Below are positions 936 through 56,927 of a DNA stretch of 64,000 nt, in pieces. How positions within the stretch are numbered: position 1 is the first letter of the stretch; each line of letters opens with the position of its first letter. The DNA comes from an uncultured Ignavibacteriaceae bacterium (GTDB taxonomy: Bacteria; Bacteroidota; Ignavibacteria; Tepidaquicellales; Tepidaquicellaceae), in the NCBI GenBank assembly GCA_964561045.1, contig CAZLOL010000001.1, forward strand, positions 23,450-87,449. The letters are read 5' to 3'. Position numbers and translations under genes: made by a program. Under the pieces are notes generated by a model that ran no database searches, had not been told where the DNA came from, and saw only the letters and a program-made list of their open reading frames with translations.

Positions 936-1793
936 ATGAGTAAAATTACTTCTGAATCCGACTGGACTTTAGAAATAAAACCTGTTTCAGGTTGGTTCAA
1001 CTTTCATCTCAAGGACGTATGGAGATACCGCGATCTGCTTTTTATGTTTGTAAGAAGAGATTTTGTTTCAGTATATAAACAGACAATTCTTGGACCATTC
1101 TGGTTTTTCCTTCAGCCAATCTTAACTACCATCACTTTTACGATTGTTTTCGGAAACATAGCAAAAATACCGACGGATGGAATTCCTCCTATACTTTTTT
1201 ATATGTCAGGAATTGTATGCTGGGGTTATTTTGCGGATTGCCTGACAAGAACGTCTTCAACTTTTATTGCCAATGCAAATATTTTCGGTAAAGTTTATTT
1301 TCCTAGGCTAGTAAGCCCTCTGTCTAATATAATTTCATTGCTGATGAAATTTGGAATTCAGATGTTACTTTTGATTGGATTCCTTATATATTTTAAATTA
1401 AACGGTTCTGATGTAAATCCAAATATATACATACTTTTAACACCTTATCTGATCTTTCTAATGGCAGGACTCGGGCTTGGATTTGGAATCATTGTATCTT
1501 CTCTTACAACAAAATACAGAGATTTGTCTTTTCTTGTAGGATTTGGAGTGCAGCTTCTAATGTACGCCACGCCGGTTATATATCCTTTATCGGCAGCACC
1601 GGAAAAATACCGATGGATAATTCTGGCAAATCCAATGACTGCAATAATTGATACATTCAGGTTTGCTTATCTTGGTGCAGGTACATTTAATGCCGGAAAT
1701 TTAATTTACAGCTCTGTTTTTATGCTGATAGTGATGGCAATAGGAATAGTGATATTTAACAGAGTTGAGAAAACATTTATGGATACTGTATAA
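936..1793 (+). CDS. wzm: ABC-2 type polysaccharide exporter permease (Wzm/TagG/KpsM family)
   Basis: 285 aa with about 6 hydrophobic helices. The N-terminal WRYRDLLFMFVRRDFVSVYKQTILGPFWFFLQP is the typical ABC-2 permease signature region. It lies directly upstream of a Wzt-type ATPase. Confidence 0.85.
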   Translation: MSKITSESDWTLEIKPVSGWFNFHLKDVWRYRDLLFMFVRRDFVSVYKQTILGPFWFFLQPILTTITFTIVFGNIAKIPTDGIPPILFYMSGIVCWGYFADCLTRTSSTFIANANIFGKVYFPRLVSPLSNIISLLMKFGIQMLLLIGFLIYFKLNGSDVNPNIYILLTPYLIFLMAGLGLGFGIIVSSLTTKYRDLSFLVGFGVQLLMYATPVIYPLSAAPEKYRWIILANPMTAIIDTFRFAYLGAGTFNAGNLIYSSVFMLIVMAIGIVIFNRVEKTFMDTV

Positions 1794-1803
1794 AAAATAT
1801 ACT

Positions 1804-2524
1804 ATGAGTGAAGTCATCAGAGTAGACGGTCTTTCCAAGTTATACAGGCTAGGACTTGTCGGTACAAGAACTATAGCTGAAGACCTTAACAGGTTATGGG
1901 CTAGATTTACCGGCAAAGAAGATCCGTATTTGAAAATAGGTGAAACAAACAACAGAATAGTAAAAGGTAAAACTGAATTTGTATGGGCTTTAAATGATAT
2001 TAATTTCGGGGTTAATCACGGCGAAAGATTCGGCATAATCGGAAAAAACGGTGCCGGAAAATCTACTTTATTGAAAATTCTTTCAAGAGTAGCTAGTCCT
2101 ACTAAAGGTTCTGTCAAAGTGAAAGGAAGAGTAGCAAGTCTTCTTGAAGTCGGTACCGGATTTCATCCTGAACTTACGGGAAGAGATAATATTTTTCTAA
2201 ACGGTTCAATTCTTGGTATGTCCCAAACTGAAATAAAAGGTAAGTTTGACAGTATAGTGGATTTCTCGGGAGTGGAAAGATATATAGACACACCGGTCAA
2301 AAGATATTCATCAGGAATGTATGTAAGACTGGCATTTGCAGTAGCAGCACATCTGGAACCGGAGATACTGATAGTAGATGAAGTGCTTGCAGTAGGGGAT
2401 GCGGAATTTCAAAAAAAATGTCTTGGCAAAATGCATGATGTATCCGAAAATGAAGGCAGAACAGTTCTTTTTGTAAGTCATAATTTACAGGCAATTAAGA
2501 ACCTGTGTCAGAAAACAATTATTT
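1804..2524 (+). repeat. Paralogous ~0.7-kb wzt NBD-coding segment, copy 1 of 3 (end approximate)
   Basis: It shares long nucleotide-identical runs with copy 2, e.g. aaaagatattcatcaggaatgtatgtaag and tttcaaaaaaaatgtcttgg. Its protein is colinear with copies 2 and 3. Confidence 0.7.
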
Positions 2525-3135
2525 TAAACAACGGGGAATTGTTTGCAAGCGGTCCGACTGCAGAGACATTAAATTCCTACAATGAACTTGTAAGGGATAT
2601 AAAAATAGATTCAAAAACTGAAGTAAATAATATTCTCAACAGAAGAGGAAACGGCAATATAAGATTTTCGGGGATTGATGTAATTGACAGACAGGGGAAG
2701 AGAAGATTTCAATATGATATAGGTGAGAGCATAAGATTTAAAATTTCCTATGAAGTATTTAAGGAGATGAAGGGTATCAGGATTATTGTTGCGCTTTTAT
2801 CGGGATTGTCAAGAGAATGTCTGACAGCAGCAAATTTTGAATTAACAAACAAAAGGATCTATCCGGGTTCAAAAGGAGAAATAGAACTGGAGTTTCCGGA
2901 CATATACATCAAACCCGGTGAGTATCCGTTATATTTTGAATTAATAGATTCAGAATTCAACTCATATTCAAAGGATGTTCTGGATGACTTAACAGCTCCG
3001 CTTGTCATTAAAGGCGGATCAAATGTCCGAAACACAGATTTTCATCCGGACATTCCATCGGGATTTTTTGCCATACCTTCCAGGATACTGGCAAATGAAG
3101 TAATATCTCACAGTATATTAAACGAGTCTGCTTAG
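1804..3135 (+). CDS. wzt: Polysaccharide ABC exporter ATP-binding protein with C-terminal extension (Wzt/TagH type), copy 1
   Basis: The ORF-track start 1765 overlaps wzm. The ATG at 1804 gives MSEVIRVDGLSKLYRLG, colinear with the two paralogs. Walker A GKNGAGKST, signature YSSGM, Walker B ILIVDEVLAVGD and H-loop FVSHN are present. About 190 aa of extra C-terminal domain follow the NBD. Confidence 0.9.
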   Translation: MSEVIRVDGLSKLYRLGLVGTRTIAEDLNRLWARFTGKEDPYLKIGETNNRIVKGKTEFVWALNDINFGVNHGERFGIIGKNGAGKSTLLKILSRVASPTKGSVKVKGRVASLLEVGTGFHPELTGRDNIFLNGSILGMSQTEIKGKFDSIVDFSGVERYIDTPVKRYSSGMYVRLAFAVAAHLEPEILIVDEVLAVGDAEFQKKCLGKMHDVSENEGRTVLFVSHNLQAIKNLCQKTIILNNGELFASGPTAETLNSYNELVRDIKIDSKTEVNNILNRRGNGNIRFSGIDVIDRQGKRRFQYDIGESIRFKISYEVFKEMKGIRIIVALLSGLSRECLTAANFELTNKRIYPGSKGEIELEFPDIYIKPGEYPLYFELIDSEFNSYSKDVLDDLTAPLVIKGGSNVRNTDFHPDIPSGFFAIPSRILANEVISHSILNESA

Positions 3136-3220: not shown

Positions 3221-4210
3221 ATGAGAACATTATTAAGTGATGATTTTTTAGACAAATCACCACCTCTTTATTCGGGAGGGGTCATATCAAATGTGCTTGG
3301 TCTTCATATTTTAAGAACAGTTTATTTAAATATCTGGAGAATGAAACCCAGAAAAGTCAGAAAGGAGATCAGACATTATGTTAATACTCTTGAAAAGGAA
3401 GGGATACTTATCATTCCGGATTTTTTCCCGAAAGAGCAATTCGATGAGATAAAAAAAGAATTTGATCAGACTTATTCAGGCTGGTCACCGTTTGACTTTA
3501 AGAAGGAAGAATTCTCAAAGAGACAAAATGATTTTCCTGAATATTTCCAGACGATAGCAGAAAAAATTACATCGCCAAATACACCTGCTTTCACAAAGTA
3601 TTTTGTCAACAATCCTTTAATAGATGAAATTACTTCTGCAGTTGTGCACAGGAAAAACCGTTTAACTCCGCATTATCATTTCTGGTATCTTCAGCGCAGG
3701 ACACTTGAGAACGAAAATGCAGATCACCTTCATTCAGCTGCTTTTCCTCATGCAGATGTACCTTACCCTACAATAAAAGTTTTTATGTATCTAAATGATG
3801 TGGATGAATCCAATGCTGCATACATTTACGCCAAAGGTTCACACAAGCTTACACTGAAAAGACTGCTGTTTGAATATAAGCTAAGCGTCAGATATGCAAA
3901 GACAAAAAATGACATTGTTACCAATGAGGATATTGCTTCGCTCGGATATTATCCTGAGAATATATGCGGAAAAGCAAACACATTATTTATTTCAAATAAC
4001 ATGGGCTATCACAACAGAGGAGAGTTTAAAACACTTGAGCCCAGACTTACAGCCCAGCTGGATTACAGGCATCTTGAAACATGGAGAAACAAATTAGCAA
4101 GGAAAGATTCATCTCTGATTTCAAAAATATCCAGAAGAATAGTAAAATCCATAGACAAAGCTAAAAAAGAAAAACTGCGTGCAAGTCTCAGTCATAATAA
4201 CATGTCATAA
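3221..4210 (+). CDS. PhyH-like Fe(II)/2-oxoglutarate dioxygenase family protein (motif-level call)
   Basis: 329 aa. It has an HxD motif (AAFPHADVPY) and a distal His/Arg region (NNMGYHNRGEF), with the spacing expected for the PhyH double-stranded beta-helix fold. Confidence 0.45.
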   Translation: MRTLLSDDFLDKSPPLYSGGVISNVLGLHILRTVYLNIWRMKPRKVRKEIRHYVNTLEKEGILIIPDFFPKEQFDEIKKEFDQTYSGWSPFDFKKEEFSKRQNDFPEYFQTIAEKITSPNTPAFTKYFVNNPLIDEITSAVVHRKNRLTPHYHFWYLQRRTLENENADHLHSAAFPHADVPYPTIKVFMYLNDVDESNAAYIYAKGSHKLTLKRLLFEYKLSVRYAKTKNDIVTNEDIASLGYYPENICGKANTLFISNNMGYHNRGEFKTLEPRLTAQLDYRHLETWRNKLARKDSSLISKISRRIVKSIDKAKKEKLRASLSHNNMS

Positions 4211-4823
4211 TTACGCCCGTTATCTTTCAAGGGCAATAAGAAGTGTTATCAATCAAACGCTTGACAGGGATGATTATGAGATCATAGTGGTAAACGATGC
4301 GAGCACAGATGAAACCGAAAAAGTAATGAAAACTTATTCGGGGAGGATCAAGCCTTTAACTTTAACAAAAAATGCCGGGCTTGCCGCCGCTCGAAATGAG
4401 GGCATTAAATCTGCTCTCGGAAGATATGTAGTAAATCTGGATGCTGACGATTATGTTGATGAAAATTTATTGCTGGTTGAAATGTTATTCCTCAATTTTA
4501 ATTCAACATGGGATGCTGTATCATGTGACTATTATTTAGTAGATGAAAATGAAAAGCATATAGGCAGGATCAGCGGTTCAGAAAAGCCGATTGCCTGCGG
4601 TGTAATGTTCAGAACGGATCTTCTATTTGGAATTGGTTTGTACGATGAAAATTTTAAAATGAGGGAAGATGAGGATCTGCGTTTAAGATTTGAAAAGAAT
4701 CATAATATAAAAAATTTAGAACTACCGCTTTACAGATACAGGAAGCATGACAATAACATGACAAATAATAAGGAAGGCATGGCTAAATACAAAAAAATAC
4801 TTAAGTCCAAACACAAAGATTAA
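4179..4823 (+). CDS. Glycosyltransferase family 2 (short, GT-A domain only)
   Basis: GTG start with a 32-nt overlap on the upstream gene. Motifs: VSVIITCHNYARYLSRAIRSVINQT, YEIIVVNDASTDET, NLDADD. Confidence 0.8.
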   Translation: MQVSVIITCHNYARYLSRAIRSVINQTLDRDDYEIIVVNDASTDETEKVMKTYSGRIKPLTLTKNAGLAAARNEGIKSALGRYVVNLDADDYVDENLLLVEMLFLNFNSTWDAVSCDYYLVDENEKHIGRISGSEKPIACGVMFRTDLLFGIGLYDENFKMREDEDLRLRFEKNHNIKNLELPLYRYRKHDNNMTNNKEGMAKYKKILKSKHKD

Positions 4824-27791: not shown

Positions 27792-28781
27792 GTGGTAAAA
27801 TATTTAATCACAGGATCATCGGGATTTGTAGGGAAGAATTTTTTAGAATATCTGAATGATAATACATCAGATACTTCCGTACTTGGAATTGACATTGCTG
27901 AAACTGAGTACAATACGAAGGAATACAGTAATCTTAAGTTTAAATTTGTAAGAGCTGATTTAAGAGAGAGGGACAAGGTCAGCAAGCTTATTTATGATTT
28001 CAATCCGAAATATATACTTCATCTTGCTTCATACAGCAGTGTAGCAGGAAGCTGGAGAAATCCAAACAATTGTTTCCAGAATAATGTGAATATCTTTTTA
28101 AATCTACTTGAAGATATAAGAAAGACCGGTACTGACTGCAGAATTATTTCTGTAGGTTCTTCGGATGTATACGGGATCGTAAAATTTTCAGAACTGCCGA
28201 TAAGGGAAGAGCAGTGTTTGAATCCATTGAGTCCTTTTGGAATCGCCAGACAAAGCCAGGAATTACTTTCACAACTGTATTCTAATATATACGGAATGGA
28301 CATAGTAATTACAAGATCATTTAATCATATAGGTCCCGGTCAGAATGAGAGTTTTGCAATATCATCTTTTGCAAAACAGATAATGGATTTAAAAAGAAAT
28401 AACGGAAATGAATTCATAGTAACAGGAGATGTATCCGTAGTAAGGGATTTCATTGATGTCAGGGATGTGGTTAGGGCATATCATCAGTTATTTTTAAAAG
28501 GTAAAAGAGGTGAGATCTATAATGTATGCAGCGGTTGTGGAATTTCCCTGCACAATATAATACAGATGCTTTGTGAAATTATGGACATCAGATTCAGCAT
28601 CAGGGAAGATAAAAAATTAAGAAGACCGGCGGATATACCTGTGATTGTGGGATGCAATGACAAGTTAAAGAAACAGACAAGCTGGACAAACGAAATAATG
28701 CTTGAGGACAGCCTGAGAGATATTCTGAAATATTATTTAAACCGTGATATTAAAGTCAAGAAGCCAGTGTACAGAAATTAA
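27792..28781 (+). CDS. Extended SDR (NAD-dependent epimerase/dehydratase fold) with non-canonical active-site residues
   Basis: GTG start. The fold motifs ITGSSGFVGKNF, VGSSDVYG and RSFNHIGPGQ are present. However, the YxxxK position reads SPFGIARQ (cct ttt gga atc gcc aga). Confidence 0.75.
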   Translation: MVKYLITGSSGFVGKNFLEYLNDNTSDTSVLGIDIAETEYNTKEYSNLKFKFVRADLRERDKVSKLIYDFNPKYILHLASYSSVAGSWRNPNNCFQNNVNIFLNLLEDIRKTGTDCRIISVGSSDVYGIVKFSELPIREEQCLNPLSPFGIARQSQELLSQLYSNIYGMDIVITRSFNHIGPGQNESFAISSFAKQIMDLKRNNGNEFIVTGDVSVVRDFIDVRDVVRAYHQLFLKGKRGEIYNVCSGCGISLHNIIQMLCEIMDIRFSIREDKKLRRPADIPVIVGCNDKLKKQTSWTNEIMLEDSLRDILKYYLNRDIKVKKPVYRN

Positions 28782-28816
28782 TTTTCAAATTTTATATTTA
28801 GATTAGGATCGACTTT

Positions 28817-29537
28817 ATGAGCGTCGTTATAAAAGCAGAAAATATATCAAAACTTTACAGACTTGGGATTCTTTCTTCAAGAACCATTGCTCAGGATGTT
28901 AATCGTTTTATTGCGAGGATTAGAGGTAAGGAAGATCCTTATTTGAAAGTTGGTGAAATAAATAACAGAGAAAAAAAAAGCAGCGGTCAGTTTATATGGG
29001 CATTAAAGGACATTAATTTTAAAATTAATTCAGGTGAAATAATCGGTATAATCGGAAAAAACGGAGCTGGTAAATCAACATTATTAAAGATCTTATCTAG
29101 AGTTACAACACCGACAACAGGTAATGTCAGAATCAAAGGAAGAGTTGCAAGTCTACTGGAAGTTGGAACCGGCTTTCATCAGGACCTTAGCGGAAAAGAA
29201 AATATATTTCTGAACGGTTCAATACTTGGCATGACAAAAAATGAAATAAAGTCAAAGTATGATGAGATAGTTGAGTTCTCCGGTGTGGAAAAATTTATTG
29301 ATACACCTGTAAAAAGATATTCATCAGGAATGTATGTAAGGCTTGCATTTGCAGTTGCAGCATATTTAGAACCGGAGATATTAATAGTTGATGAAGTATT
29401 AGCCGTAGGCGATGCAGAGTTTCAAAAAAAATGTCTTGGGAAAATGCACGATGTGTCAGCTAAGGAAGGAAGGACGGTAATTTTTGTAAGCCATAATATG
29501 GGAGCAGTCAGGAGTCTTTGCACTTCATCAATTTTAC
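28817..29537 (+). repeat. Paralogous wzt NBD-coding segment, copy 2 of 3 (end approximate)
   Basis: Nucleotide-identical runs with copy 1, and a protein colinear with copies 1 and 3. Confidence 0.7.
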
Positions 29538-30109
29538 TTGAAAGAGGGATGATAAAGAACATCGGGAATACAGAAAGTATAATAACTGAATATCTTAATA
29601 TAAGTTCGGAAAACTTTGAAGCATACAGAGAATTCAATGATCAGAATTCAGAGACTTACTTTAAAAAAATATCAGTGAAACCTGAAAATTCAAACTTTGC
29701 ATGCAGTGAAATAGAAGTATTGAAATCATTTAATGTTGAATTTAATTATTTTCTGAAAAAAAATATTCCCGGTCTAAGTCTTGGATTTTCAATTTATTCA
29801 AAGAACGGAATGAAAATACTTTACGACTCACAGGCAGTTAAAAAGCTTTCAGGAGATGCGGAAAACAGATCCGGATATTTCACAGCGGAAGTAACAATTC
29901 CGGGCATGTTTCTTGCACCCGGCAGTTATTTCATTAATGCAGCACTTCATATAGAAAATGTGCAGCTTCTTGATTTTAAAGAAAATGTAATAAGTTTCAA
30001 CATTATTGAAAGCGGCTCACAGCTTCAAAAATTCAGCGGAAAAGATATGGGTGTAATCATAGCTGATTTCAAATGGAGAAGTATAAATGAAAACATTACA
30101 ACTAACTAA
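28817..30109 (+). CDS. wzt: Wzt/TagH-type ABC exporter ATP-binding protein with distinct C-terminal domain, copy 2 (no adjacent permease)
   Basis: Motifs MSVVIKAENISKLYRLG, GKNGAGKST, YSSGMYVRLAFAVAA, ILIVDEVLAVGDAEFQKKCLGK and FVSHN. The C-terminal ~180 aa are unlike those of copies 1 and 3. Confidence 0.9.
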   Translation: MSVVIKAENISKLYRLGILSSRTIAQDVNRFIARIRGKEDPYLKVGEINNREKKSSGQFIWALKDINFKINSGEIIGIIGKNGAGKSTLLKILSRVTTPTTGNVRIKGRVASLLEVGTGFHQDLSGKENIFLNGSILGMTKNEIKSKYDEIVEFSGVEKFIDTPVKRYSSGMYVRLAFAVAAYLEPEILIVDEVLAVGDAEFQKKCLGKMHDVSAKEGRTVIFVSHNMGAVRSLCTSSILLERGMIKNIGNTESIITEYLNISSENFEAYREFNDQNSETYFKKISVKPENSNFACSEIEVLKSFNVEFNYFLKKNIPGLSLGFSIYSKNGMKILYDSQAVKKLSGDAENRSGYFTAEVTIPGMFLAPGSYFINAALHIENVQLLDFKENVISFNIIESGSQLQKFSGKDMGVIIADFKWRSINENITTN

Positions 30110-31180
30110 GTGATAAAGATATTCATAAGTTTTGATTATTACGGAGCAGGAAATATTGGAGATGATCTGATGCTGGACGGATTTTTGAAAGAAATGAAAT
30201 CTTCTAATTTTGAATTTTACTGTTCACTTCCAAGAGATCCATATTCGCAGAAAATAAGGTTTCCTGAAATAAATTTCGTAAGCAGTGAAGACCGGGTTGA
30301 AGCAGCTAATCTTTGCAATATCTGGATCGGGATCGGAGATACTCCAATTCAGGTCAAATCAGGAAACTGGTTTCTGGATCATTTGCTAAAAGATTCAGAG
30401 CTTAAAAAGGGAAAGAAAATAAAATATTATTTTATCGGAATAGGTGCTGAATCTGAAGCCGTTTCGGAAAAAGCAAATTACAAAATCGTTCTGGATGAAA
30501 TAGATCACATATGGACAAGAGATAAAGCAACGACTGATACTTTAATAAATGGGATCGGCATAAGTGCTGAAAGAATTACAACTTCATCTGATTTGGCAAA
30601 TATATCTTTAAGTAATATATACCTAAGCAGAGCAAGAAATGAAAAAAACAAATATGATATTGGAATGTGTTATTTTGATGAAAATGCTGAATCCGTAAAT
30701 TTGGATGCAGTAAAGATATTTTTAAAAAATGCTGTTAGGAATAGCAAAAGAGTTCTTGCTTTCGGAAATGAAGTCAGAGAAAAAGGAAAGTATGAATACA
30801 GAATCTATATGAATATGTTTACAAGGCTTGAAAGATTATTTGGAGGTGTAAAATATTATCAGCCTGATTATTACAACCTGAATAATGTTTCAGATCTTGT
30901 CCGGCATTACTCAACATGTGAAGTAATAATGACATCAAGATTTCATTCATTATTAACTGCAGCTTGGGCTGGCTGTAAAGTAGTTGCTCTTGAGCGCTCT
31001 TCAAAAGTAACTGCATTGGCGGAAGACTTAGGCATTAAAGAAGTTAAAAAACCATTTACTGCTGAAAAATTAATGCAGTCTTATAATGAATCTGCCGTAA
31101 TAGATATAAACATTCTCAAAAGATTTCATGAGCAGGCTGTGCGCAGTACAGAAAGTTTGAAAAAACATATATTCAGTTAA
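30110..31180 (+). CDS. Polysaccharide pyruvyl transferase family protein (CsaB/WcaK-like)
   Basis: The GTG start abuts the wzt copy 2 stop. Motifs FDYYGAGNIGDDLMLDGF and IMTSRFHSLLTAAWAGCKVVAL. Confidence 0.6.
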   Translation: MIKIFISFDYYGAGNIGDDLMLDGFLKEMKSSNFEFYCSLPRDPYSQKIRFPEINFVSSEDRVEAANLCNIWIGIGDTPIQVKSGNWFLDHLLKDSELKKGKKIKYYFIGIGAESEAVSEKANYKIVLDEIDHIWTRDKATTDTLINGIGISAERITTSSDLANISLSNIYLSRARNEKNKYDIGMCYFDENAESVNLDAVKIFLKNAVRNSKRVLAFGNEVREKGKYEYRIYMNMFTRLERLFGGVKYYQPDYYNLNNVSDLVRHYSTCEVIMTSRFHSLLTAAWAGCKVVALERSSKVTALAEDLGIKEVKKPFTAEKLMQSYNESAVIDINILKRFHEQAVRSTESLKKHIFS

Positions 31181-31219
31181 AATACATCCAGAGAAAAAAT
31201 TAATTTATTTATTTATACA

Positions 31220-32401
31220 TTGATCAGAGATGTAAAAATATTCATCAGGGAATTTCTTAAAGATATTTTAAATAAATATTTTAGGAGAAAATCAATTTTT
31301 ACAAAAAAGAATACTTTACTGATAGTAAGAATAGATGCCATTGGCGATTATATATTGTTCAGGAATTTCATAAAAGTTATTAAAGAATCTGAAAGATTCA
31401 AAAATTACAGTATAACATTATTAGGTAATAAAATCTGGAAAGATCTTGCTGAAGAACTTGACAAAAAATATATAGATAAATTTATCTGGATTGATGTTAA
31501 TAATTTTTTTAAAAATTCAGAATGGGCACAAACTTATTCTGTCTTATTTAAATTACATTATTTCGGTTTTGAAACAATATTGATCCCTAAAGATACGCGG
31601 AACTGGAGAAGTGAATTTATTGCTGATCATGCAGGAGCTAAGAATATACTTATGGATGAAAATAATTCATTCATTCCCGAAAACGAATCCGGTAATGTAT
31701 TAGATAATTCCCATAAAGGATCATTAAGTAATCATCAATCTTTATTATTTCAGTTTAACAGAAATAAGTATTTTACTGAGAAATTGATCAGAAGCAGTGT
31801 TCACATTCAAAAGCCATTTATTGAGGATGTAAGACCGGAAAAATTAAATGGTAATTTAAGGAGAGATTATATAGTAGTATTTCCGGGAGCGAGTGATATA
31901 AAAAAAATGTGGTCAGCGGAAAATTTCGGAATTCTTTGTAAAAAAATTAATGAAGTTTATAATATAAGTATATTGATCTGCGGAAGTGAATCTGATAAAG
32001 CTGCGGCAAAAAAAATAATGGAAATAGCAGGAATTCAAAACATAGAAGATAAAACAAGAGACGGAAGCTTATCTGAACTTGTAACCTTAATATCAAATGC
32101 AAAATTATTAATAACAAATGATACTTGTGCCCTTCATATAGGAGCAGCATTAAATACAAAAACAATCTGTATAACCAACGGTCTACATTTCGGAAGATTT
32201 CATCCTTATCCTGAAGATATGTCGGATTTTGTAAGGACATTGTATCCCGATAAAGATCTTATCATAAACGGGAACTTTGAATATCTTGCGAGAAAATTTC
32301 ATTTAAGCTCTGATCTTGATATAAATCTAATTTCCCCTGACGAGGTTTTTTATTCTGTCAGAGAATTCTTACAAACAGAAAGCGCAATTCAATTTGGATA
32401 A
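31220..32401 (+). CDS. Glycosyltransferase family 9 (heptosyltransferase-like)
   Basis: TTG start. Motifs LLIVRIDAIGDYILF, VVFPGASDIKKMWSAENF and LISNAKLLITNDTCALHIGAALNTKTICI. Confidence 0.7.
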   Translation: MIRDVKIFIREFLKDILNKYFRRKSIFTKKNTLLIVRIDAIGDYILFRNFIKVIKESERFKNYSITLLGNKIWKDLAEELDKKYIDKFIWIDVNNFFKNSEWAQTYSVLFKLHYFGFETILIPKDTRNWRSEFIADHAGAKNILMDENNSFIPENESGNVLDNSHKGSLSNHQSLLFQFNRNKYFTEKLIRSSVHIQKPFIEDVRPEKLNGNLRRDYIVVFPGASDIKKMWSAENFGILCKKINEVYNISILICGSESDKAAAKKIMEIAGIQNIEDKTRDGSLSELVTLISNAKLLITNDTCALHIGAALNTKTICITNGLHFGRFHPYPEDMSDFVRTLYPDKDLIINGNFEYLARKFHLSSDLDINLISPDEVFYSVREFLQTESAIQFG

Positions 32402-32425
32402 AATGAAAAAAGTACAGAAAAAGAA

Positions 32426-33146
32426 ATGAGCGTAGTTATAAGAGCAGAGAACATTTCTAAACTTTACAGGTTAGGGATAATAACCTCAAAGTCCATAGCA
32501 CAGGATCTAAACCGGTTTATTGCCAGGATAAGAGGAAAAGAAGATCCTTATTTAAAAGTTGGACAGTTAAATGAAAGAGATAAGAAAACCGAAGGTCAGT
32601 TTGTCTGGGCGCTGAAAGATATAAATTTCGAAGTTCTGGACGGTGAGATTCTTGGGATCATAGGAAATAACGGAGCAGGTAAATCGACATTATTAAAAAT
32701 ATTATCACGAGTTTCATCGCCTACTACAGGTGATATTAAAATAAAAGGGAGAGTAGCAAGCCTTCTGGAAGTTGGCACGGGATTTCATCCTGAGCTTACC
32801 GGTACAGAGAATATATTCCTTAACGGATCAATCCTTGGAATGACAAGAAATGAAATAAAAAAAAAATTCGATGAGATAGTGGACTTTTCTGGAGTTGAGA
32901 AATTTATAGACACACCCGTAAAAAGATATTCATCGGGAATGCATGTACGGCTGGCGTTTGCTGTTGCAGCTCATCTTGATCCTGAAATACTTATTGTAGA
33001 TGAAGTGCTTGCCGTCGGTGATGCGGAATTTCAGAAGAAATGTCTTGGAAAGATTCAGGATGTTTCGAGTAAAGACGGGAGAACAGTTTTGTTTGTGAGT
33101 CATAATATGGCTGTATTGTCAAATTTATGTTCATCTGTAATCGTAC
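32426..33146 (+). repeat. Paralogous wzt NBD-coding segment, copy 3 of 3 (end approximate; most diverged at third codon positions)
   Basis: The protein is colinear with copies 1 and 2, but the nucleotide similarity is visibly lower. Confidence 0.6.
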
Positions 33147-33715
33147 TTAAAAACGGGATGATTGATTTTCCAAAAGGACAGGCTAAAGAAGGGATTCAGT
33201 TTTATTTAACTGACAGAAAAGAAAAAACTAAAATATCGCTGAGAGACAGAAAAGACAGGAAGGGGGATGGAAAGATAAGGCTTACACATTTTGAAATATT
33301 GAACTCCGATAATATAAATCTAGAAACAACGATCTCAGGGCAGCATATAAAGTTCAGGATCATGTATGAATGTGTAGATAATCCAAACCCGAAAAATATT
33401 AGTACTGCACTTTCAATTACACGTTCAGATGGATTTCTTGTAACTGTCTTAAGCAATGAAATTTCCTCTGCTCAATTCCCATCAATTCCACAGAAGGGAA
33501 GTTTTATTTGTACTCTCGATAAGCTGCCGTTAACTTCAGGTAATTATTTAATTAATTTAATAGTACATCAGAATAACATAATACAGGACTGGATACAGGA
33601 AGCGGCATTTTTCAATGTTGAGGACGGAGATTTTTATAATACCGGAAAGATAGTTCCTTCAACTCATAGAAGTATTTTACTGGAACAGCAATGGCAAACG
33701 GAGGCAATAAATTAA
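32426..33715 (+). CDS. wzt: Wzt/TagH-type ABC exporter ATP-binding protein with distinct C-terminal domain, copy 3 (no adjacent permease)
   Basis: Motifs MSVVIRAENISKLYRLG, GNNGAGKST, YSSGMHVRLAFAVAA, ILIVDEVLAVGDAEFQKKCLGK and FVSHN. The C-terminal domain is divergent (RKGDGKIRLTHFEILNSD...). Confidence 0.9.
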   Translation: MSVVIRAENISKLYRLGIITSKSIAQDLNRFIARIRGKEDPYLKVGQLNERDKKTEGQFVWALKDINFEVLDGEILGIIGNNGAGKSTLLKILSRVSSPTTGDIKIKGRVASLLEVGTGFHPELTGTENIFLNGSILGMTRNEIKKKFDEIVDFSGVEKFIDTPVKRYSSGMHVRLAFAVAAHLDPEILIVDEVLAVGDAEFQKKCLGKIQDVSSKDGRTVLFVSHNMAVLSNLCSSVIVLKNGMIDFPKGQAKEGIQFYLTDRKEKTKISLRDRKDRKGDGKIRLTHFEILNSDNINLETTISGQHIKFRIMYECVDNPNPKNISTALSITRSDGFLVTVLSNEISSAQFPSIPQKGSFICTLDKLPLTSGNYLINLIVHQNNIIQDWIQEAAFFNVEDGDFYNTGKIVPSTHRSILLEQQWQTEAIN

Positions 33716-33718
33716 TTT

Positions 33719-34471
33719 ATGATCAAAAAAAAAATAAATGATTTCCTTTCGCTGTTCGGAGTTGGCATTTTCCGTCTGAAGAAACCCGAACTTGGGAAAA
33801 ACGGGAATTTGTCTAAGAAAGCGAAGTGGAGTGATTTTGAGATTAAATCTCCGTTAGATCATAATACATCTGAGAGAATGAATGATTTTTTTTCAGATTC
33901 AAGGATGCTGGAACAATATCTGGGAGAGGAAAGGATTGATTTTTACCTAGAGATAGTCGGAATAGTAAAAGAATTTAATATTGATCTGAATAATAAGGAT
34001 GCAATAGATGTCGGAACCGGTACGGGACATTTGTTATCTTTTTTCCATGAGAATTATAATTTTAGAAGTATAACAGGAGTTGATTTTTCTGAATCTGCCA
34101 TTGAAGTAGCAAAAAAAACCCTTCCGGAAGGTAAGTTTTTTGTACATGATCTCTATCAGAAATTAGAAAAAAAATATGATCTGATATTATGCACGGAGGT
34201 CATTGAGCATTTACTTTACCCGGATCTTGCTTTAAGAAATATCATTGATATGATGAGCAAGGATTCAATATGTCTGATAACTGTACCAAACGGCAGGACT
34301 GATCAGTATGAAGGACATATTAATTTCTGGAGTCCGGAAAGCTGGGAGGTTTTTATCAGAAATAACTGCAAGGGACTTTCAGTCAGGACGGGTACCATAA
34401 AAGATGGGAAAAATAATTATGCTATAATCTGCAACAGAGAAATAAGTAAGACAACCAATAAAGATATATGA
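33719..34471 (+). CDS. Class I SAM-dependent methyltransferase
   Basis: Motif I is AIDVGTGTGHLL, followed by DLILCTEVIEHL. It starts 3 nt after the wzt copy 3 stop. Confidence 0.8.
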   Translation: MIKKKINDFLSLFGVGIFRLKKPELGKNGNLSKKAKWSDFEIKSPLDHNTSERMNDFFSDSRMLEQYLGEERIDFYLEIVGIVKEFNIDLNNKDAIDVGTGTGHLLSFFHENYNFRSITGVDFSESAIEVAKKTLPEGKFFVHDLYQKLEKKYDLILCTEVIEHLLYPDLALRNIIDMMSKDSICLITVPNGRTDQYEGHINFWSPESWEVFIRNNCKGLSVRTGTIKDGKNNYAIICNREISKTTNKDI

Positions 34472-34544
34472 TAAAATTTATTACAATAATTATTCACATT
34501 AATACACTTAAAATTTTTAAAACAATTCATATTTCCGGAGAAAC

Positions 34545-35699
34545 TTGAAACTAAGATTATTAAAATTCGACACAATAAATCCCCAAATTTATTTAGACAA
34601 AAAAATAGAAGAGCACAAAGAACTTATCGGAAAGATGAGCAGAAAGGATTTGCTGGAATGGATCATTTCAACAAGGGGTAATTTTTCGGATTTTTATACA
34701 TACAATTTGAAAAAGCTGGGCTGGGAGACTGAAGAATTTTTTACAAATGATCATTACATTGACAAGGTTGCAGATGAAGTTTACGGCTCAGGAAAAAAAT
34801 ACAGGTATTTTGTTCAGTCTATCAGAAATAAAATAAAACCGGTCAAAGACAGAATAAAACTAAACGTGATACATGCTTATGTTGAAAAGTATAAACCGGA
34901 TGTGATACTTGTCAGAGAGCAGACAGGAATTCCAAGTTACTTCTGGAAAAGTTTCGACAGCAGTACTTTACTGGTGTCCAGACTTGCCGCACCGGTACCC
35001 AGGCACTGGTATCCATCTGACTGGGATCTCATACTTTCATCAACAGAAGCTTACAAAACTTTCTTTGAGCTCAATGGAGTTCCTACTTATATAAATCAAA
35101 ATGGATTTGATGAAAGAGTATTAGCTGAATTAAAAGATGAAGGAAAAAAATATGAAGTAACATTTGCTGGAGGATTAGGAGACAGATACTGGATTAAAAG
35201 GACAAAATGTTTTGAATTTGTTGCTGAAAATCTTGACTTCAAATGGTGGGGATACAATTACAATAAGAAATCCGCTGAAAATCATTTGAATAAAACATGG
35301 CAGGGACTTACATCAGGACTTGAAATGCTGCAGATCTATAAGAACTCAAAGATAGTTCTGAATGATTACGGACAAATAGCCGGCGGTGTAGGAGTTAATC
35401 AAAGATTATTTGAAACCTTAGGTGTAGGTACATTCCTGCTTACTCGGTATTCAGAAAATTTAGTTAAGCAATATCCTGCGAATATTTTTATGACCTTTAA
35501 AGATGAAAAAGATTGTGTGGACAAGGCAAAGTACTTTCTGAGCAACGGAGAAGAAAGAGAAGAGATAGCACTGGCAGGTCAGAAATTTGTACTGGAAAAT
35601 TTTAATTATGATATTCTGATGAAAGATCTCAATGAAGTTTTAAAAGAATCATATGAAAAAAAATTCAAACTAAATGGTAGAGCACATAAAAAACAATGA
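34545..35699 (+). CDS. CgeB-like glycosyltransferase (Glyco_trans_1_2-type C-terminal domain)
   Basis: TTG start with GGAG about 5 nt upstream. The C-terminus reads IVLNDYG...NQRLFETLGVGTFLLT...FKDEKDCVDKAKYFLSNGEEREEIALAGQKFVLENFNY. Confidence 0.5.
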   Translation: MKLRLLKFDTINPQIYLDKKIEEHKELIGKMSRKDLLEWIISTRGNFSDFYTYNLKKLGWETEEFFTNDHYIDKVADEVYGSGKKYRYFVQSIRNKIKPVKDRIKLNVIHAYVEKYKPDVILVREQTGIPSYFWKSFDSSTLLVSRLAAPVPRHWYPSDWDLILSSTEAYKTFFELNGVPTYINQNGFDERVLAELKDEGKKYEVTFAGGLGDRYWIKRTKCFEFVAENLDFKWWGYNYNKKSAENHLNKTWQGLTSGLEMLQIYKNSKIVLNDYGQIAGGVGVNQRLFETLGVGTFLLTRYSENLVKQYPANIFMTFKDEKDCVDKAKYFLSNGEEREEIALAGQKFVLENFNYDILMKDLNEVLKESYEKKFKLNGRAHKKQ

Positions 35700-46912: not shown

Positions 46913-47698
46913 ATGAATAAGTATCTGGAAAAGCATATCTGGAAGAATAAATACAAAAATCTTTTGAGCTACAAAATCCCTTTTCCGGAAAATAAATTTG
47001 TAATTTACACCAGAGGAAGAACAGGAAGCACAGTACTTACTGATTTGCTGAATTGTCATCCGGACATTTTCTGCGATGTAGAAATATTTAATTTCATGTA
47101 TTCAAAAGGTGTAGTAGCATTTCCAATATCATACATAAAAAGCTGCAGTAAAAGAGCGGCTTTATATAAAAGATCAACTTATGGTTTTAAGGTTAAGATA
47201 GCCCAGTTAAGATATGAACATAAGTACAGTAATTATGAAAAGATACTGAGAGATCTGAATTCTGACGGATGGAAATTCATTTATCTGAAAAGAGAGAATT
47301 TTCTCAGACATAAGTTATCAAATATAGTATCATCAGAATCTAAAATATTTCATTTAAAGAATTCAGATAAAGTTAAGCCGCTGAAGATCAGAATAGACTG
47401 CAATTCATTACTGGATGGAATAAAATTCAGTGAAGAAGTAGAAAAGACAGAAAAAGAAAATCTAAGAAACATTCCTCATTTGACACTAATATACGAAAAT
47501 GACATTATAGATAATTCAAAACATCAGGAGACAGCTGACAGTGTTTTTAGTTATTTAGGTCTGAAATCCTGCAGAGTATCAACAAATTATAAGAGGATAA
47601 TTCCTGATAATCTTGATGAGACCATACAGAACTATGATGAAGTATATGGCTTTTTTAAAGATACGGAATACTCAAAGTATCTAAATAAACATTTCTGA
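46913..47698 (+). CDS. Putative PAPS-dependent sulfotransferase (Stf0-like)
   Basis: IYTRGRTGSTVLTDLL is a 5'-PSB-like loop, and FIYLKRENFLRHKLSNIVS is 3'-PB-like (RxxxxxxxS). This is a motif-level call only. Confidence 0.45.
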   Translation: MNKYLEKHIWKNKYKNLLSYKIPFPENKFVIYTRGRTGSTVLTDLLNCHPDIFCDVEIFNFMYSKGVVAFPISYIKSCSKRAALYKRSTYGFKVKIAQLRYEHKYSNYEKILRDLNSDGWKFIYLKRENFLRHKLSNIVSSESKIFHLKNSDKVKPLKIRIDCNSLLDGIKFSEEVEKTEKENLRNIPHLTLIYENDIIDNSKHQETADSVFSYLGLKSCRVSTNYKRIIPDNLDETIQNYDEVYGFFKDTEYSKYLNKHF

Positions 47699-48465
47699 TG
47701 AAAGTATTTGACGGATATGCGAAATATTACGATCTGCTTTATAAAGAAAAGGATTACAGATCAGAAGCTGAATATATAATTAAGATTATAAAAGATTGTG
47801 TTCCGGAAGCAAGGAATATATTGGACCTGGGTTGTGGAACAGGAAAACACGATCTTATTTTTGTAAAAAACAATTACCAGGTTACGGGTGTTGAACTATC
47901 ACAAAAAATGACAGATCTTGCCAATAGTAATATTCTTTCTGAGACAGGGGGAAGTCAGGAAATAAAATTCATAAACGGAGATTTAAGAAGTATAAGGCTT
48001 AATCAAAAATTTGATATAATTACATCTTTGTTTCATGTGATCAACTACCAGACAACCAATGAAGATCTGAGAGCAGCATTCAGAACAGTAAAAGAACATC
48101 TCAGTCCAAATGGCAAGTTTATTTTTGATTTCTGGTACGGACCCGCAGTCTTGAGTGACAGACCGGTATCAAGGATCAGGAAAATGGAAGATGAAGAATG
48201 CATTATTGAAAGGCATACAGAACCGGTCATTAATGTAAATGAGAATTATGTTGATGTAAATTTTAGGATATCGATAACTGAAAAACAAAGGACTACGAAA
48301 CAGGAATTAAATGAAACTCACAGGATGAGATATTTATTTTTACCGGAGATAATTTTATTTCTGGAAGAGCAAAACATGAAGATTGAACACTGTGAAGAGT
48401 GGATGAAAGATAATTGCTTATCAGATAGAAGCTGGTACGGAATAGCTGTAGCCGGTAATATGTAA
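47698..48465 (+). CDS. Class I SAM-dependent methyltransferase
   Basis: Motif I is ILDLGCGTGKHDL, with FDIITSLFHVINY. There is a TGATG start/stop overlap. Confidence 0.85.
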   Translation: MKVFDGYAKYYDLLYKEKDYRSEAEYIIKIIKDCVPEARNILDLGCGTGKHDLIFVKNNYQVTGVELSQKMTDLANSNILSETGGSQEIKFINGDLRSIRLNQKFDIITSLFHVINYQTTNEDLRAAFRTVKEHLSPNGKFIFDFWYGPAVLSDRPVSRIRKMEDEECIIERHTEPVINVNENYVDVNFRISITEKQRTTKQELNETHRMRYLFLPEIILFLEEQNMKIEHCEEWMKDNCLSDRSWYGIAVAGNM

Positions 48466-54526: not shown

Positions 54527-55571
54527 CGCAATTAAATATCTGCCGCATTATCTGAGAAAAAAATTCAATGATAAATTAATTATAATAGAGAGCGATGACT
54601 GGGGAATGGAGAGAGCTTTAACGCAGGAATCTATTAAATGGATGGAAAAAAAATACGGCAAGGACAAACTTAGCAGATGGAGTTATGATTCTCTTGAAAC
54701 ACCTGAAGATCTCAAAGAACTATATGATGTTTTAAATAAATACAAATCTAAATTCGAATTTCCACCTGTTATCACAGCAAATTTTATAACACACAACGTA
54801 GATTATTCCTCCACAAATGAATTAAAATTTATTCCTCTTTCAGGGGGATTTAATATTGAGAACAAAAGACTGAAAGAATTATATACTGAAGGGATAAAAA
54901 ATGAAATTATTTTTCCACAGCTTCACGGATACAGTCATTTTAATCTAAATGCGTTGAAGGACTATTTTAATACAGACGAAGGCAGAGAATCATTTAAGAA
55001 TAATTTTCTTTCTGCAAAATCAACAATCAGGGGAAACCTGAGTTTTCTGCACGGAGAGCTCAGCTTAAAGAATCCGGATTCAGGGAAGCTCAGGGAAGCT
55101 GCAGAAGAATTCAAAAAGTATTTCGGATTTTATTCGAAATCTATAATCCCGCCTACATTTATTTTTGATAAGGAATTAACCAGCATTTTAAAAGAAAGCC
55201 GGATCTCACTTGTTCAATCATCAAACAGGCTTGAGTCATCTGAGAAGAAAAGACTGATTATCCCATATTTCAGGAAAAGCAAAGGATTATACTGGTCTGT
55301 AAGAAATGCAAGATTAGACCCGGATGAAAATTATAGATTCTATCACGATCAATGCTTTGCATCAATTGAAAAAGCTTTTGAAAGCAGAGTACCGGCAGTA
55401 ATAGATTTTCACAGAGTTAACTTTGCAGGGACATTCGCTCCGGAATACAGATCCAGAACTATCAGGGAATTAGATATGCTGTTTAATAAAATATATCAGA
55501 AATGGCCCGGCTCAAAATTCATACATTCACAAAAACTAAATGACATTTTATGGCAACAAGAAACCAGATAA
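54510..55571 (+). CDS. Uncharacterised protein with a CE4/NodB-like metal-site pattern (possible deacetylase/deformylase)
   Basis: TTG start with a 17-nt overlap. IIIESDDWG and later FPQLHGYSH (HxxxH) are present. Nothing else was recognised. Confidence 0.3.
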   Translation: MRNPFNAIKYLPHYLRKKFNDKLIIIESDDWGMERALTQESIKWMEKKYGKDKLSRWSYDSLETPEDLKELYDVLNKYKSKFEFPPVITANFITHNVDYSSTNELKFIPLSGGFNIENKRLKELYTEGIKNEIIFPQLHGYSHFNLNALKDYFNTDEGRESFKNNFLSAKSTIRGNLSFLHGELSLKNPDSGKLREAAEEFKKYFGFYSKSIIPPTFIFDKELTSILKESRISLVQSSNRLESSEKKRLIIPYFRKSKGLYWSVRNARLDPDENYRFYHDQCFASIEKAFESRVPAVIDFHRVNFAGTFAPEYRSRTIRELDMLFNKIYQKWPGSKFIHSQKLNDILWQQETR

Positions 55572-56206
55572 ATTTTATAGAAATGAATAAGGAGTTCATT
55601 TCAGAACCCATTCTTCTAGTAGGATCAAAGCAATACGAATATGACAGGGAAAATCTCAACACCAGTCTCATCAAAATGGGGTTTAAAAATATTACGGGTA
55701 TTGATCTGTTTGAAGGTGAGGGGGTTGATTTTGCAGTGGACATAACTGACAGCGGTTCAGATTTTGTTAATAATCACAAAGAATTTTATTCAACGGTCAT
55801 TTGTATGGAAGTACTCACAAATGTAAAAAATCCTTTCAAAGCCTCAGAAAACATAATTTCACTCCTGAAAAAAGGCGGGATATCTATAATGTCAGAATGC
55901 TATGTCAGAAAAATTTCAAAGATGCCGGTTGATCTCTGGAGATTTACATATGACGGAACTAAAGAACTCTTTTCCGGACTTGATTTCATGGATGCCAGAG
56001 CGATGATATCTCTTACCAGAGATAAAGAGGAAAGACTGCTTCCACTGAAGTATCCGCTTCCGCAGCTTCTATCAGAAAAGCACGAAGATGAAAGCTCTTT
56101 AGGATATATGATAAGAAGAATTCACAGAAAGTATTTCGGGAAGGGAATATTTAAGATCTCAAGGCTAATGCCCGAAACTACTATTTATTCAATTGCTAAA
56201 AAGTAA
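55550..56206 (+). CDS. Degenerate class I methyltransferase-like protein
   Basis: Motifs ILLVGSKQ, GIDLFEGEGVDFAVDITD and VICMEVLTNVKNP...LLKKGGISIM. The alternative start ATG 55583 lies after the upstream stop. Confidence 0.4.
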   Translation: MATRNQINFIEMNKEFISEPILLVGSKQYEYDRENLNTSLIKMGFKNITGIDLFEGEGVDFAVDITDSGSDFVNNHKEFYSTVICMEVLTNVKNPFKASENIISLLKKGGISIMSECYVRKISKMPVDLWRFTYDGTKELFSGLDFMDARAMISLTRDKEERLLPLKYPLPQLLSEKHEDESSLGYMIRRIHRKYFGKGIFKISRLMPETTIYSIAKK

Positions 56207-56213
56207 CCCTATT

Positions 56214-56927
56214 ATGTCGAAAGAAAACAGTATTTATGAAAAATTGAAAGACAATATTGCTTTCAGGATTTCCCGGAAAAATTTAAAAAAATTTTTACCG
56301 CCCGGCAATATAGATGCTGTATTAAATTCAATCGAGAATTACAGCGGAAGAGGATTTTATGACAAGATACGTTTAGCTCAGGAACGCAATGAACTTAAAA
56401 GCTTAAGCGAAAGAGTTATGTTGCATAATCCGAGAGTTATAGTAGAGATAGGAACATGGAACGGCGGAACGTTTTTTGTATGGAGCAGAATTTTTCCTAA
56501 TGCGAGTAAAATCATCAGTATAGATCTTCCGGACGGACAATACGGAGGCGGATATGATATAAAACGAATTAAATTTTTCAGGGAATTCATAAGTGACAGG
56601 ACAAATACAGCTATGCATTTTATCAGAGGAGATTCAAAATCTCCGGAATCGGTGTCCGGCTTAAAAAAAATCCTTGGAGATGATAAGATTGATTTTCTCT
56701 ATCTCGATGGTGACCATACTTATGAGGGAATAAAAAGGGATTTTGAAATTTACAAAGATTTAATGTCGGATGACGGGCTTATTGGATTTCATGATATAAA
56801 TACTTATAAGGACGGTCATGAAGTGCATAGATACTGGAATGAAATAAAAGAAGGCTATAAATATGAAGAGTTTATCAAACCCGGAAGCAAAACAATGGGT
56901 AACGGGTTATTATATATGAATAAATAG
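56214..56927 (+). CDS. Class I SAM-dependent methyltransferase (Methyltransf_24/CmcI-like)
   Basis: ATG 56214 (MSKENS) is preferred to TTG 56193, which overlaps the upstream gene. Motifs VEIGTWNGGTFFVW, IISIDLPDG, FLYLDGDHTYEGIKRDFEIY and GFHDI. Confidence 0.75.
   Translation: MSKENSIYEKLKDNIAFRISRKNLKKFLPPGNIDAVLNSIENYSGRGFYDKIRLAQERNELKSLSERVMLHNPRVIVEIGTWNGGTFFVWSRIFPNASKIISIDLPDGQYGGGYDIKRIKFFREFISDRTNTAMHFIRGDSKSPESVSGLKKILGDDKIDFLYLDGDHTYEGIKRDFEIYKDLMSDDGLIGFHDINTYKDGHEVHRYWNEIKEGYKYEEFIKPGSKTMGNGLLYMNK

Follow-up and report, generated by a model that had tools for sequence, protein, structure and literature searches.

A wzt-pyruvyl transferase-GT9 gene cassette that probably couples capping to export in an Ignavibacteria glycan locus with three Wzt subunits and one Wzm

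Wzt ATPases that bear a carbohydrate-binding domain (CBD) read methyl, methyl-phosphate or 3-deoxy-D-manno-octulosonate (Kdo) caps, and export of the capped chains requires the CBD (PMC9445017, PMC11231755). How the end of chain growth is tied to export is understood for these three caps only, and termination by pyruvate has been suggested without validation. In Klebsiella pneumoniae O1b, WbbZ adds a terminal 3,4-pyruvate ketal, which in vitro stops polymerisation and shortens the products (PMC10629545), and the Klebsiella O1/O2 transporter, which has no carbohydrate-binding module (CBM), exports chains with or without pyruvate (PMC11231755). Burkholderia vietnamiensis G4 as well as Pseudomonas protegens are unvalidated candidates for pyruvate-based termination (PMC10629545). 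The 64,000-nt stretch analysed here (the window; contig CAZLOL010000001.1, positions 23,450 to 87,449) comes from an uncultured Ignavibacteriaceae bacterium and carries one gene for a Wzm permease and three wzt genes. The second of these, wzt2, is followed by genes encoding a polysaccharide pyruvyl transferase (PyrT) and a GT9-family glycosyltransferase (hereafter GT9). These three genes behave as one unit, which, judging from sequence, is probably a portable cap-then-export cassette.

The locus resembles the WbdD systems of Escherichia coli O9a/O8 (Klebsiella O3/O5) in being ABC transporter-dependent, in having a CBD on Wzt, in placing the modifier beside the transporter and in its apparent cap-then-export logic. 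Unlike those systems, which pair a single Wzt with Wzm, it has three, its modifiers are small, single-domain proteins without a coiled-coil ruler or kinase domain, and the cap proposed for Wzt2 is a pyruvylated sugar added by GT9 rather than methyl or methyl-phosphate. K. pneumoniae O12 (WbbB, GT99) and O4 (ORF7), in which a dedicated glycosyltransferase (GT) adds a unique acidic terminal sugar, Kdo, that is read by the Wzt CBM, offer the best analogue for the role proposed for GT9 with or without PyrT. Here, however, a GT9-family enzyme not fused to the polymerase would take that place, with a separate PyrT, and the three-gene cassette moves together. WbbZ of K. pneumoniae O1b is likewise a PF04230-type enzyme and forms its pyruvate ketal on the terminal sugar at the non-reducing end of an O antigen exported by an ABC transporter, but the Wzt there has no CBM, whereas PyrT here is locked to a Wzt that bears one. 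Among solved structures, Wzt2 has its closest relative in WzmWzt of Aquifex aeolicus (PDB 8dku, 7k2t, 6o14, 8dky), whose CBD dimer binds a 3-O-methyl-sugar cap and to whose full-length Wzt Wzt2 aligns through the CBD. The two differ in that their C-domains are about 20% identical, the position of the A. aeolicus Trp362 is not conserved in the Wzt2 type (clade B, defined below), and the clade-B trap loop is shorter and carries an invariant IENxQ motif. For B. vietnamiensis G4 and for P. protegens, a CBM-bearing Wzt adjoining a pyruvyl transferase leads to the same inference, to which the present locus adds an obligate GT9 partner, a multi-Wzt arrangement and cassette mobility. An earlier note on this DNA regarded a pyruvyl export cap as undescribed, which broadly holds if a validated cap is meant, but as an idea it is already present in the O1b terminal pyruvate and the two candidate species (PMC10629545). 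No description of several CBD-type Wzt on one Wzm was found in the literature, which is not proof of absence.

The window is a one-strand glycan locus that exceeds 60 kb, in which nearly all open reading frames (ORFs) longer than 120 aa lie on the + strand and the junctions are short or overlapping (Table 1). The gene order set out in the earlier note was borne out throughout: the TAA stop of wzt2 ends at 30109 and the GTG start of PyrT begins at 30110, a gap of 0 nt, with GT9 next; the S-adenosylmethionine (SAM) methyltransferase begins with an ATG at 33719, 3 nt after wzt3 ends at 33715; and wzt1 is followed by a PhyH-like gene, a GT2, a nonulosonate module and a KpsC/S-like protein, all confirmed by Pfam with a weak match for PhyH. 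This arrangement is not due to chance, because it recurs in related genomes and in independent metagenome contigs. The source assembly (designated G000; 4.47 Mb, 539 contigs, 91% complete) contains exactly three Wzt_C matches, all within the window locus, and one Wzm homologue (936-1793).

Conservation was followed in 86 genomes from this family, with each Wzt C-domain, PyrT, GT9 and the methyltransferase as queries and about 40 related loci inspected; Wzt2 was additionally searched in 400 genomes of the class. Below, G numbers other than G000 label related genomes and g numbers label genera. The clade-B Wzt occurs in 12 of the 86 family genomes, and the GT9 orthologue is found in exactly the same 12, with constant adjacency, each genome having 10-20 other GT9-family candidates. 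Orthologues of PyrT were detected in 11 of the 86, all with a clade-B wzt directly upstream, and nowhere else. The trio occupies a slot in the main locus in genera g1, g14 and g15, tightly spaced and on the same strand; in genus g8 it lies at a housekeeping site, with cytidylate kinase and aspartyl protease genes upstream and Omp85 downstream; and in G441 it stands between arginase/dnaX and a protein with a type IX secretion system (T9SS) tail, while the main locus of that genome carries wzt3 together with the methyltransferase. The order of the trio is also the same in all eight informative metagenome contigs (8/8), one of which (L124) is approximately a copy of the full set of wzt2, PyrT, GT9, wzt3 and methyltransferase. 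Because the trio is kept in at least three unrelated contexts and in every informative metagenome contig, wzt2, PyrT and GT9 are to be regarded as a single unit. The GC content of GT9 (0.289) is the lowest among the 62 ORFs counted in the window (median 0.352, standard deviation 0.023), which fits a mobile origin; the part of wzt2 encoding the C-domain has a GC content of 0.316.

PyrT matches PF04230 over residues 15-297, well above the cut-off (59.9 bits against 25.3); with 52 bits to TIGR03609 (cut-off 213) it does not qualify as a CsaB equivalog, and no solved relative of it was found by sequence search. The match of GT9 to PF01075 (60.2 bits against 22) covers profile positions 102-220 of 247 only, and every NCBIfam heptosyltransferase equivalog scored far under its cut-off. 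In a Thermoflexibacter metagenome-assembled genome (MAG; L115, JALOMS010000101.1, 756-6771), genes for a Wzx-like flippase, a PyrT (39% identical), a GT9 (34%), an HldE-like and a GmhA-like (SIS) protein stand in a row, suggestive of a Wzx-dependent pathway with a pyruvylated heptose unit. Because these PyrT and GT9 homologues adjoin HldE-like and GmhA-like genes, heptose is the predicted sugar for GT9, which is probably a heptosyltransferase with ADP-heptose as its putative donor. The source genome contains hldE-like kinase and adenylyltransferase genes (contig C459) and a gmhA-like gene (C33). The pairing of Wzt2 with a pyruvyl cap, as first proposed, therefore needs to be reworded: the functional unit is well supported, with PyrT in 11 of the 12 genomes, but the strictest partner of Wzt2 is GT9 (12/12), and a bare pyruvyl ketal on the backbone is unlikely. 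Since GT9 is present in 12/12 and PyrT in 11/12, the likely cap is a terminal sugar that would be added by GT9 and is usually pyruvylated.

Two individual genomes showed peculiarities in wzt2 itself. In G427 (L097, G427:C12, 8308-9599), the coding sequence of wzt2 is broken into two ORFs (220 and 221 aa) close to a conserved A8 run (EFQKKC), and since the assembly is a long-read assembly and the conserved run is adjacent, the split is probably a homopolymer or assembly error. In G432 (L122/L123; G432:C273, C265), the N-terminal part of the Wzt2 C-domain is 39% identical, compared with 65-70% in congeners.

All three Wzt proteins of the window retain intact ATPase motifs, with G(K/N)NGAGKST, YSSGM, ILIVDE and VSHN (Walker A, signature, Walker B and H-loop) invariant in the alignment. 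Pairwise identity among them is 72-79% in the nucleotide-binding domain (NBD) halves and 15-22% in the C-domains. A maximum likelihood tree of the C-domains of 63 family Wzts resolved four discrete clades, A-D, that are conserved over six genera. Clade A (Wzt1 type; 27 rows) always adjoins wzm; clade B (Wzt2 type) is a single clade (support 97/92) with PyrT after every row in the tree; clade C (Wzt3 type) comprises 8 rows; and clade D comprises 13 rows, none from the source genome, that are followed by a GT4-like gene or an epimerase/aminotransferase set. The dN/dS ratio of the C-domains is 0.04-0.21 (0.06-0.21 for clade B), and both Wzt halves are well under 1. A structural model of the Wzt2 C-domain, used for fold class only owing to its low confidence (pLDDT 55), has Wzt CBDs as top fold matches, namely 8dl0 and 6o14 (A. 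aeolicus), 5hno (Kdo-binding) and 2r5o (E. coli O9a). A word-based search with the same domain matched close Ignavibacteria relatives only. The A. aeolicus cap pocket could not be mapped onto Wzt3, where the phmmer alignment covers the NBD alone. Together, near-identical ATPase halves and divergent C-domains suggest that Wzt1, Wzt2 and Wzt3 are most likely alternative ATPases of one Wzm, each admitting chains with a different non-reducing end.

The arrangement points to a pathway in which a lipid-carrier-linked polymer would be built in the cytoplasm as part of an ABC-transporter-dependent surface glycan pathway. GT9 would end a subset of the chains with a terminating sugar, probably heptose from ADP-heptose, and the PF04230 enzyme would usually turn this terminal sugar into a pyruvate ketal. 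A Wzt2 dimer would then bind the capped end through its clade-B domain and, docked on Wzm, drive export, with differently ended chains leaving by way of Wzt3 or Wzt1 through the same channel. We infer the enzymatic activities, the terminal position of the modification, the ligand of each domain and the sharing of Wzm from gene content and sequence. On balance, we favour somewhat the interpretation of wzt2, PyrT and GT9 as a reader-plus-writers unit for cap-dependent export. That pyruvate itself is the group recognised by Wzt2 is a plausible but more tentative proposal, towards which we are slightly more doubtful than convinced. A wider generalisation is speculative and rather doubtful: one Wzm may be programmed by swappable Wzt readers, cassettes insertable anywhere may each add an exportable glycoform, a pyruvylated heptose-type sugar may represent a new cap class, and the cell surface may be a mix of chain ends set by the cassettes present. 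The locus is a compact, testable candidate, a three-gene unit beside two further readers that would share a channel. If the proposal is true, a new cap joins those known to serve export, a small dedicated glycosyltransferase and a modifier can terminate chains without a ruler domain, and swapping the ATPase subunit alone would exchange exporter specificity, which would be useful in glycoengineering.

Several observations weigh against the interpretation as a reader-plus-writers unit. G432 (77% complete) has no PyrT, with wzt2 followed after a 91-nt gap by GT9, and because it retains wzt2 and GT9 without PyrT, pyruvate may not be what is recognised. Genomes this closely related do not count as independent samples, and the independent events are few, at about three cassette placements. 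No binding pocket was assignable in the Wzt2 CBD model (pLDDT 55); the tryptophan that stacks on the methyl group in A. aeolicus (Trp362) aligns to a variable position in clade B; and the invariant clade-B loop contains a Glu (in IENxQ), which is unexpected at a carboxylate-binding site. Furthermore, wzt2 and wzt3 have no adjacent wzm, whose single copy overlaps the start of wzt1, and relatives carry a second Wzm-Wzt pair elsewhere, the common Wzm for Wzt2 and Wzt3 being assumed.

The genomic surroundings of wzt2 and wzt3 raise the alternative that they belong to serotype cassettes without cap reading, in which PyrT, GT9 and the methyltransferase act on internal or side-chain residues, the C-domains read the repeat unit or nothing, and block inheritance keeps the genes adjacent. 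The two genes lie in a slot (27792-35699, from a short-chain dehydrogenase/reductase (SDR) gene to Glyco_trans_1_2) about 27 kb downstream of wzm-wzt1 and traced over six genera (loci L048-L105). The slot is hypervariable, in keeping with this alternative: across relatives it holds clade B, C and D wzt in varied combinations together with GT4-like, epimerase, aminotransferase or methyltransferase genes, four Wzt types being counted there with various GT, epimerase and aminotransferase genes. Almost every relative has the SDR gene upstream of the slot Wzt, and Glyco_trans_1_2 follows clade-C or clade-D Wzt and is absent where a clade-B cassette alone fills the slot (G275, G427, G432). The sugars pyruvylated by most of the characterised PF04230 enzymes are internal or in side chains, the pyruvate of K. 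pneumoniae O1b is dispensable for export, and the Wzt3 type persists without the methyltransferase. However, the trio is intact among housekeeping genes, far from other glycan genes, and block inheritance of a serotype region fails as an explanation because the trio is intact when alone. Moreover, all Wzt CBDs studied to date bind a terminal cap, and GT9 accompanies clade B in 12/12 genomes despite the other GT9-family candidates available in each. Serotype cassettes without cap reading are an unlikely explanation, albeit one to be taken seriously.

Alternatively, the trio may serve a separate glycoconjugate, such as an oligosaccharide that is linked to the core and contains heptose, or a second polymer, perhaps with another permease, which is quite improbable. 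Consistent with such a role, the trio and the main locus are unlinked in genus g8 and G441, relatives possess the second Wzm-Wzt pair, GT9 enzymes classically act on the lipopolysaccharide (LPS) core, and the Thermoflexibacter homologues adjoin a Wzx-type flippase and not a Wzt. In g1, g14 and g15, however, the trio is part of the main locus, tightly spaced and on one strand with it, the Wzt2 NBD is 72-79% identical to those of Wzt1 and Wzt3, as would suit docking on a common Wzm, and the G000 assembly (91% complete) shows no second Wzm. That the additional wzt genes are mere duplicates, redundant or in decay and without a specific role, has a very slight probability, for although the split wzt2 of G427 and the A9-A10 tracts that the source genome has in wzt2 and wzt3 would agree with it, the ATPase motifs are all intact, the clades are kept across six genera, dN/dS is well under 1 in both halves, the G427 split is probably an assembly error and the tracts are not conserved in orthologues.

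For Wzt1, the nonulosonic acid cap suggested earlier finds no discriminating evidence in the neighbourhood: the Wzt1 type and the KpsC/S-like gene occur in the same six genera and are inherited with the whole locus. The Wzt1 type, as the core Wzt, adjoins wzm in 30 of the 86 family genomes, and the PhyH-like gene after it is present in 22/27 and missing in 4/27, with the GT2 retained.

The methyltransferase orthologue follows a clade-C Wzt in five of eight genomes (G000, G367, G441, G269 and G440), and of the five genomes beyond G000 that have it, four carry it after a clade-C and one (G431) after a clade-D Wzt. It is absent from the entire genomes of G222, G438 and G439, which form one clade-C subclade and whose Wzt3 C-domains retain the clade-invariant residues and are under purifying selection (dN/dS 0.05-0.10). 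The protein encoded at 33719-34471 has a single methyltransferase domain at residues 89-206, with no coiled-coil ruler or kinase domain according to Pfam and no sequence match to WbdD structures. The window has at least five other methyltransferases, and no exclusive consistent partner of the Wzt3 type was found, GT1_2 being always present but also occurring with clade D. The proposed pairing of Wzt3 with an O-methyl cap is therefore weak: the methyltransferase does adjoin in 5/8, but it is lost in G222, G438 and G439, stands beside clade D in G431 and is one of several methyltransferases in the window. Because the Wzt3 C-domain is under purifying selection with or without it, the methyltransferase is an optional decorator and not an obligatory cap writer for Wzt3, for which a methyl cap is possible. 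Elsewhere in the window, 46913-48465 and 55550-56927 contain a 261-aa unknown protein paired with a methyltransferase (the pair is kept in all relatives) and a RMNT/CmcI-type, rhamnosyl O-methyltransferase-like gene (56193-56927), which could write methyl caps.

Table 1. Main features of the glycan locus, with positions in the window. Pfam curated cut-offs (bits): Wzt_C 30.4; PS_pyruv_trans 25.3; Glyco_transf_9 22; PhyH 22.
Feature	Coordinates	Strand	Support	Position or remark
Tyrosine-kinase-like ATPase fragment			Pfam	First in locus order, before wzm
wzm, ABC-2 permease	936..1793	+	ABC2_membrane 57.7 bits	
wzt1, ABC ATPase, clade-A Wzt_C	1765..3135	+	ABC_tran + Wzt_C 42.2 bits	Start overlapped by wzm
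PhyH-like gene	3221-4210	+	Weak Pfam match, 25 bits	
GT2	4179-4823	+	Pfam	Downstream of wzt1
Nonulosonate module (NeuB, two CMP-transferases, aminotransferases, amidotransferases)			Pfam	After GT2
Capsule_synth-like (KpsC/S-like) protein, 578 aa	17461-19197		Pfam	After nonulosonate module
Phosphonate cassette with TagF-like transferase			Pfam	Between Capsule_synth-like and AAC(3)-like genes
AAC(3)-like gene, then DUF4910 gene			Pfam	Upstream of atypical SDR
Atypical extended SDR	27792..28781	+	Epimerase/GDP_Man_Dehyd	Left border of wzt slot
wzt2, ABC ATPase, clade-B Wzt_C	28817..30109	+	ABC_tran + Wzt_C 48.3 bits	
Polysaccharide pyruvyl transferase (PyrT)	30110..31180	+	PF04230 PS_pyruv_trans 59.9 bits	
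GT9-family glycosyltransferase	31220..32401	+	Glyco_transf_9 60.2 bits	
wzt3, ABC ATPase, clade-C Wzt_C	32426..33715	+	ABC_tran + Wzt_C 58.0 bits	
Class I SAM methyltransferase, 250 aa	33719..34471	+	Pfam	
GT-B-like glycosyltransferase (Glyco_trans_1_2)	34545..35699	+	Pfam	Right border of slot

The downstream remainder of the locus contains about 25 more sugar-modifying and glycosyltransferase genes. Runs of A9-A10 occur five times in the window (27187, 28971, 32857, 33725 and 57751), three of them inside 28817-34471, a total close to the expectation from base composition. Phase variation through these tracts in wzt2, wzt3 and the methyltransferase was considered and rejected, as the number of tracts is that expected by chance and those of wzt2 and wzt3 are absent from orthologues. 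The second Wzm-Wzt pair of relatives (L120, G315:C3:96000-106000; L121, G441:C156:32000-42000) is divergent, with Wzm 37-39% identical, and adjoins a protein of 1,470-1,500 aa without a match to the window proteins; the pair was not found in the G000 assembly (91% complete). The relatives are uncultured Ignavibacteria or Bacteroidota MAGs, several of them from wastewater plants. In one of them, G431 (L099, G431:C95, 2347-5545), DUF7033, ATP-grasp and another gene are inserted between DUF4910 and the SDR gene, and the methyltransferase orthologue follows the clade-D wzt.

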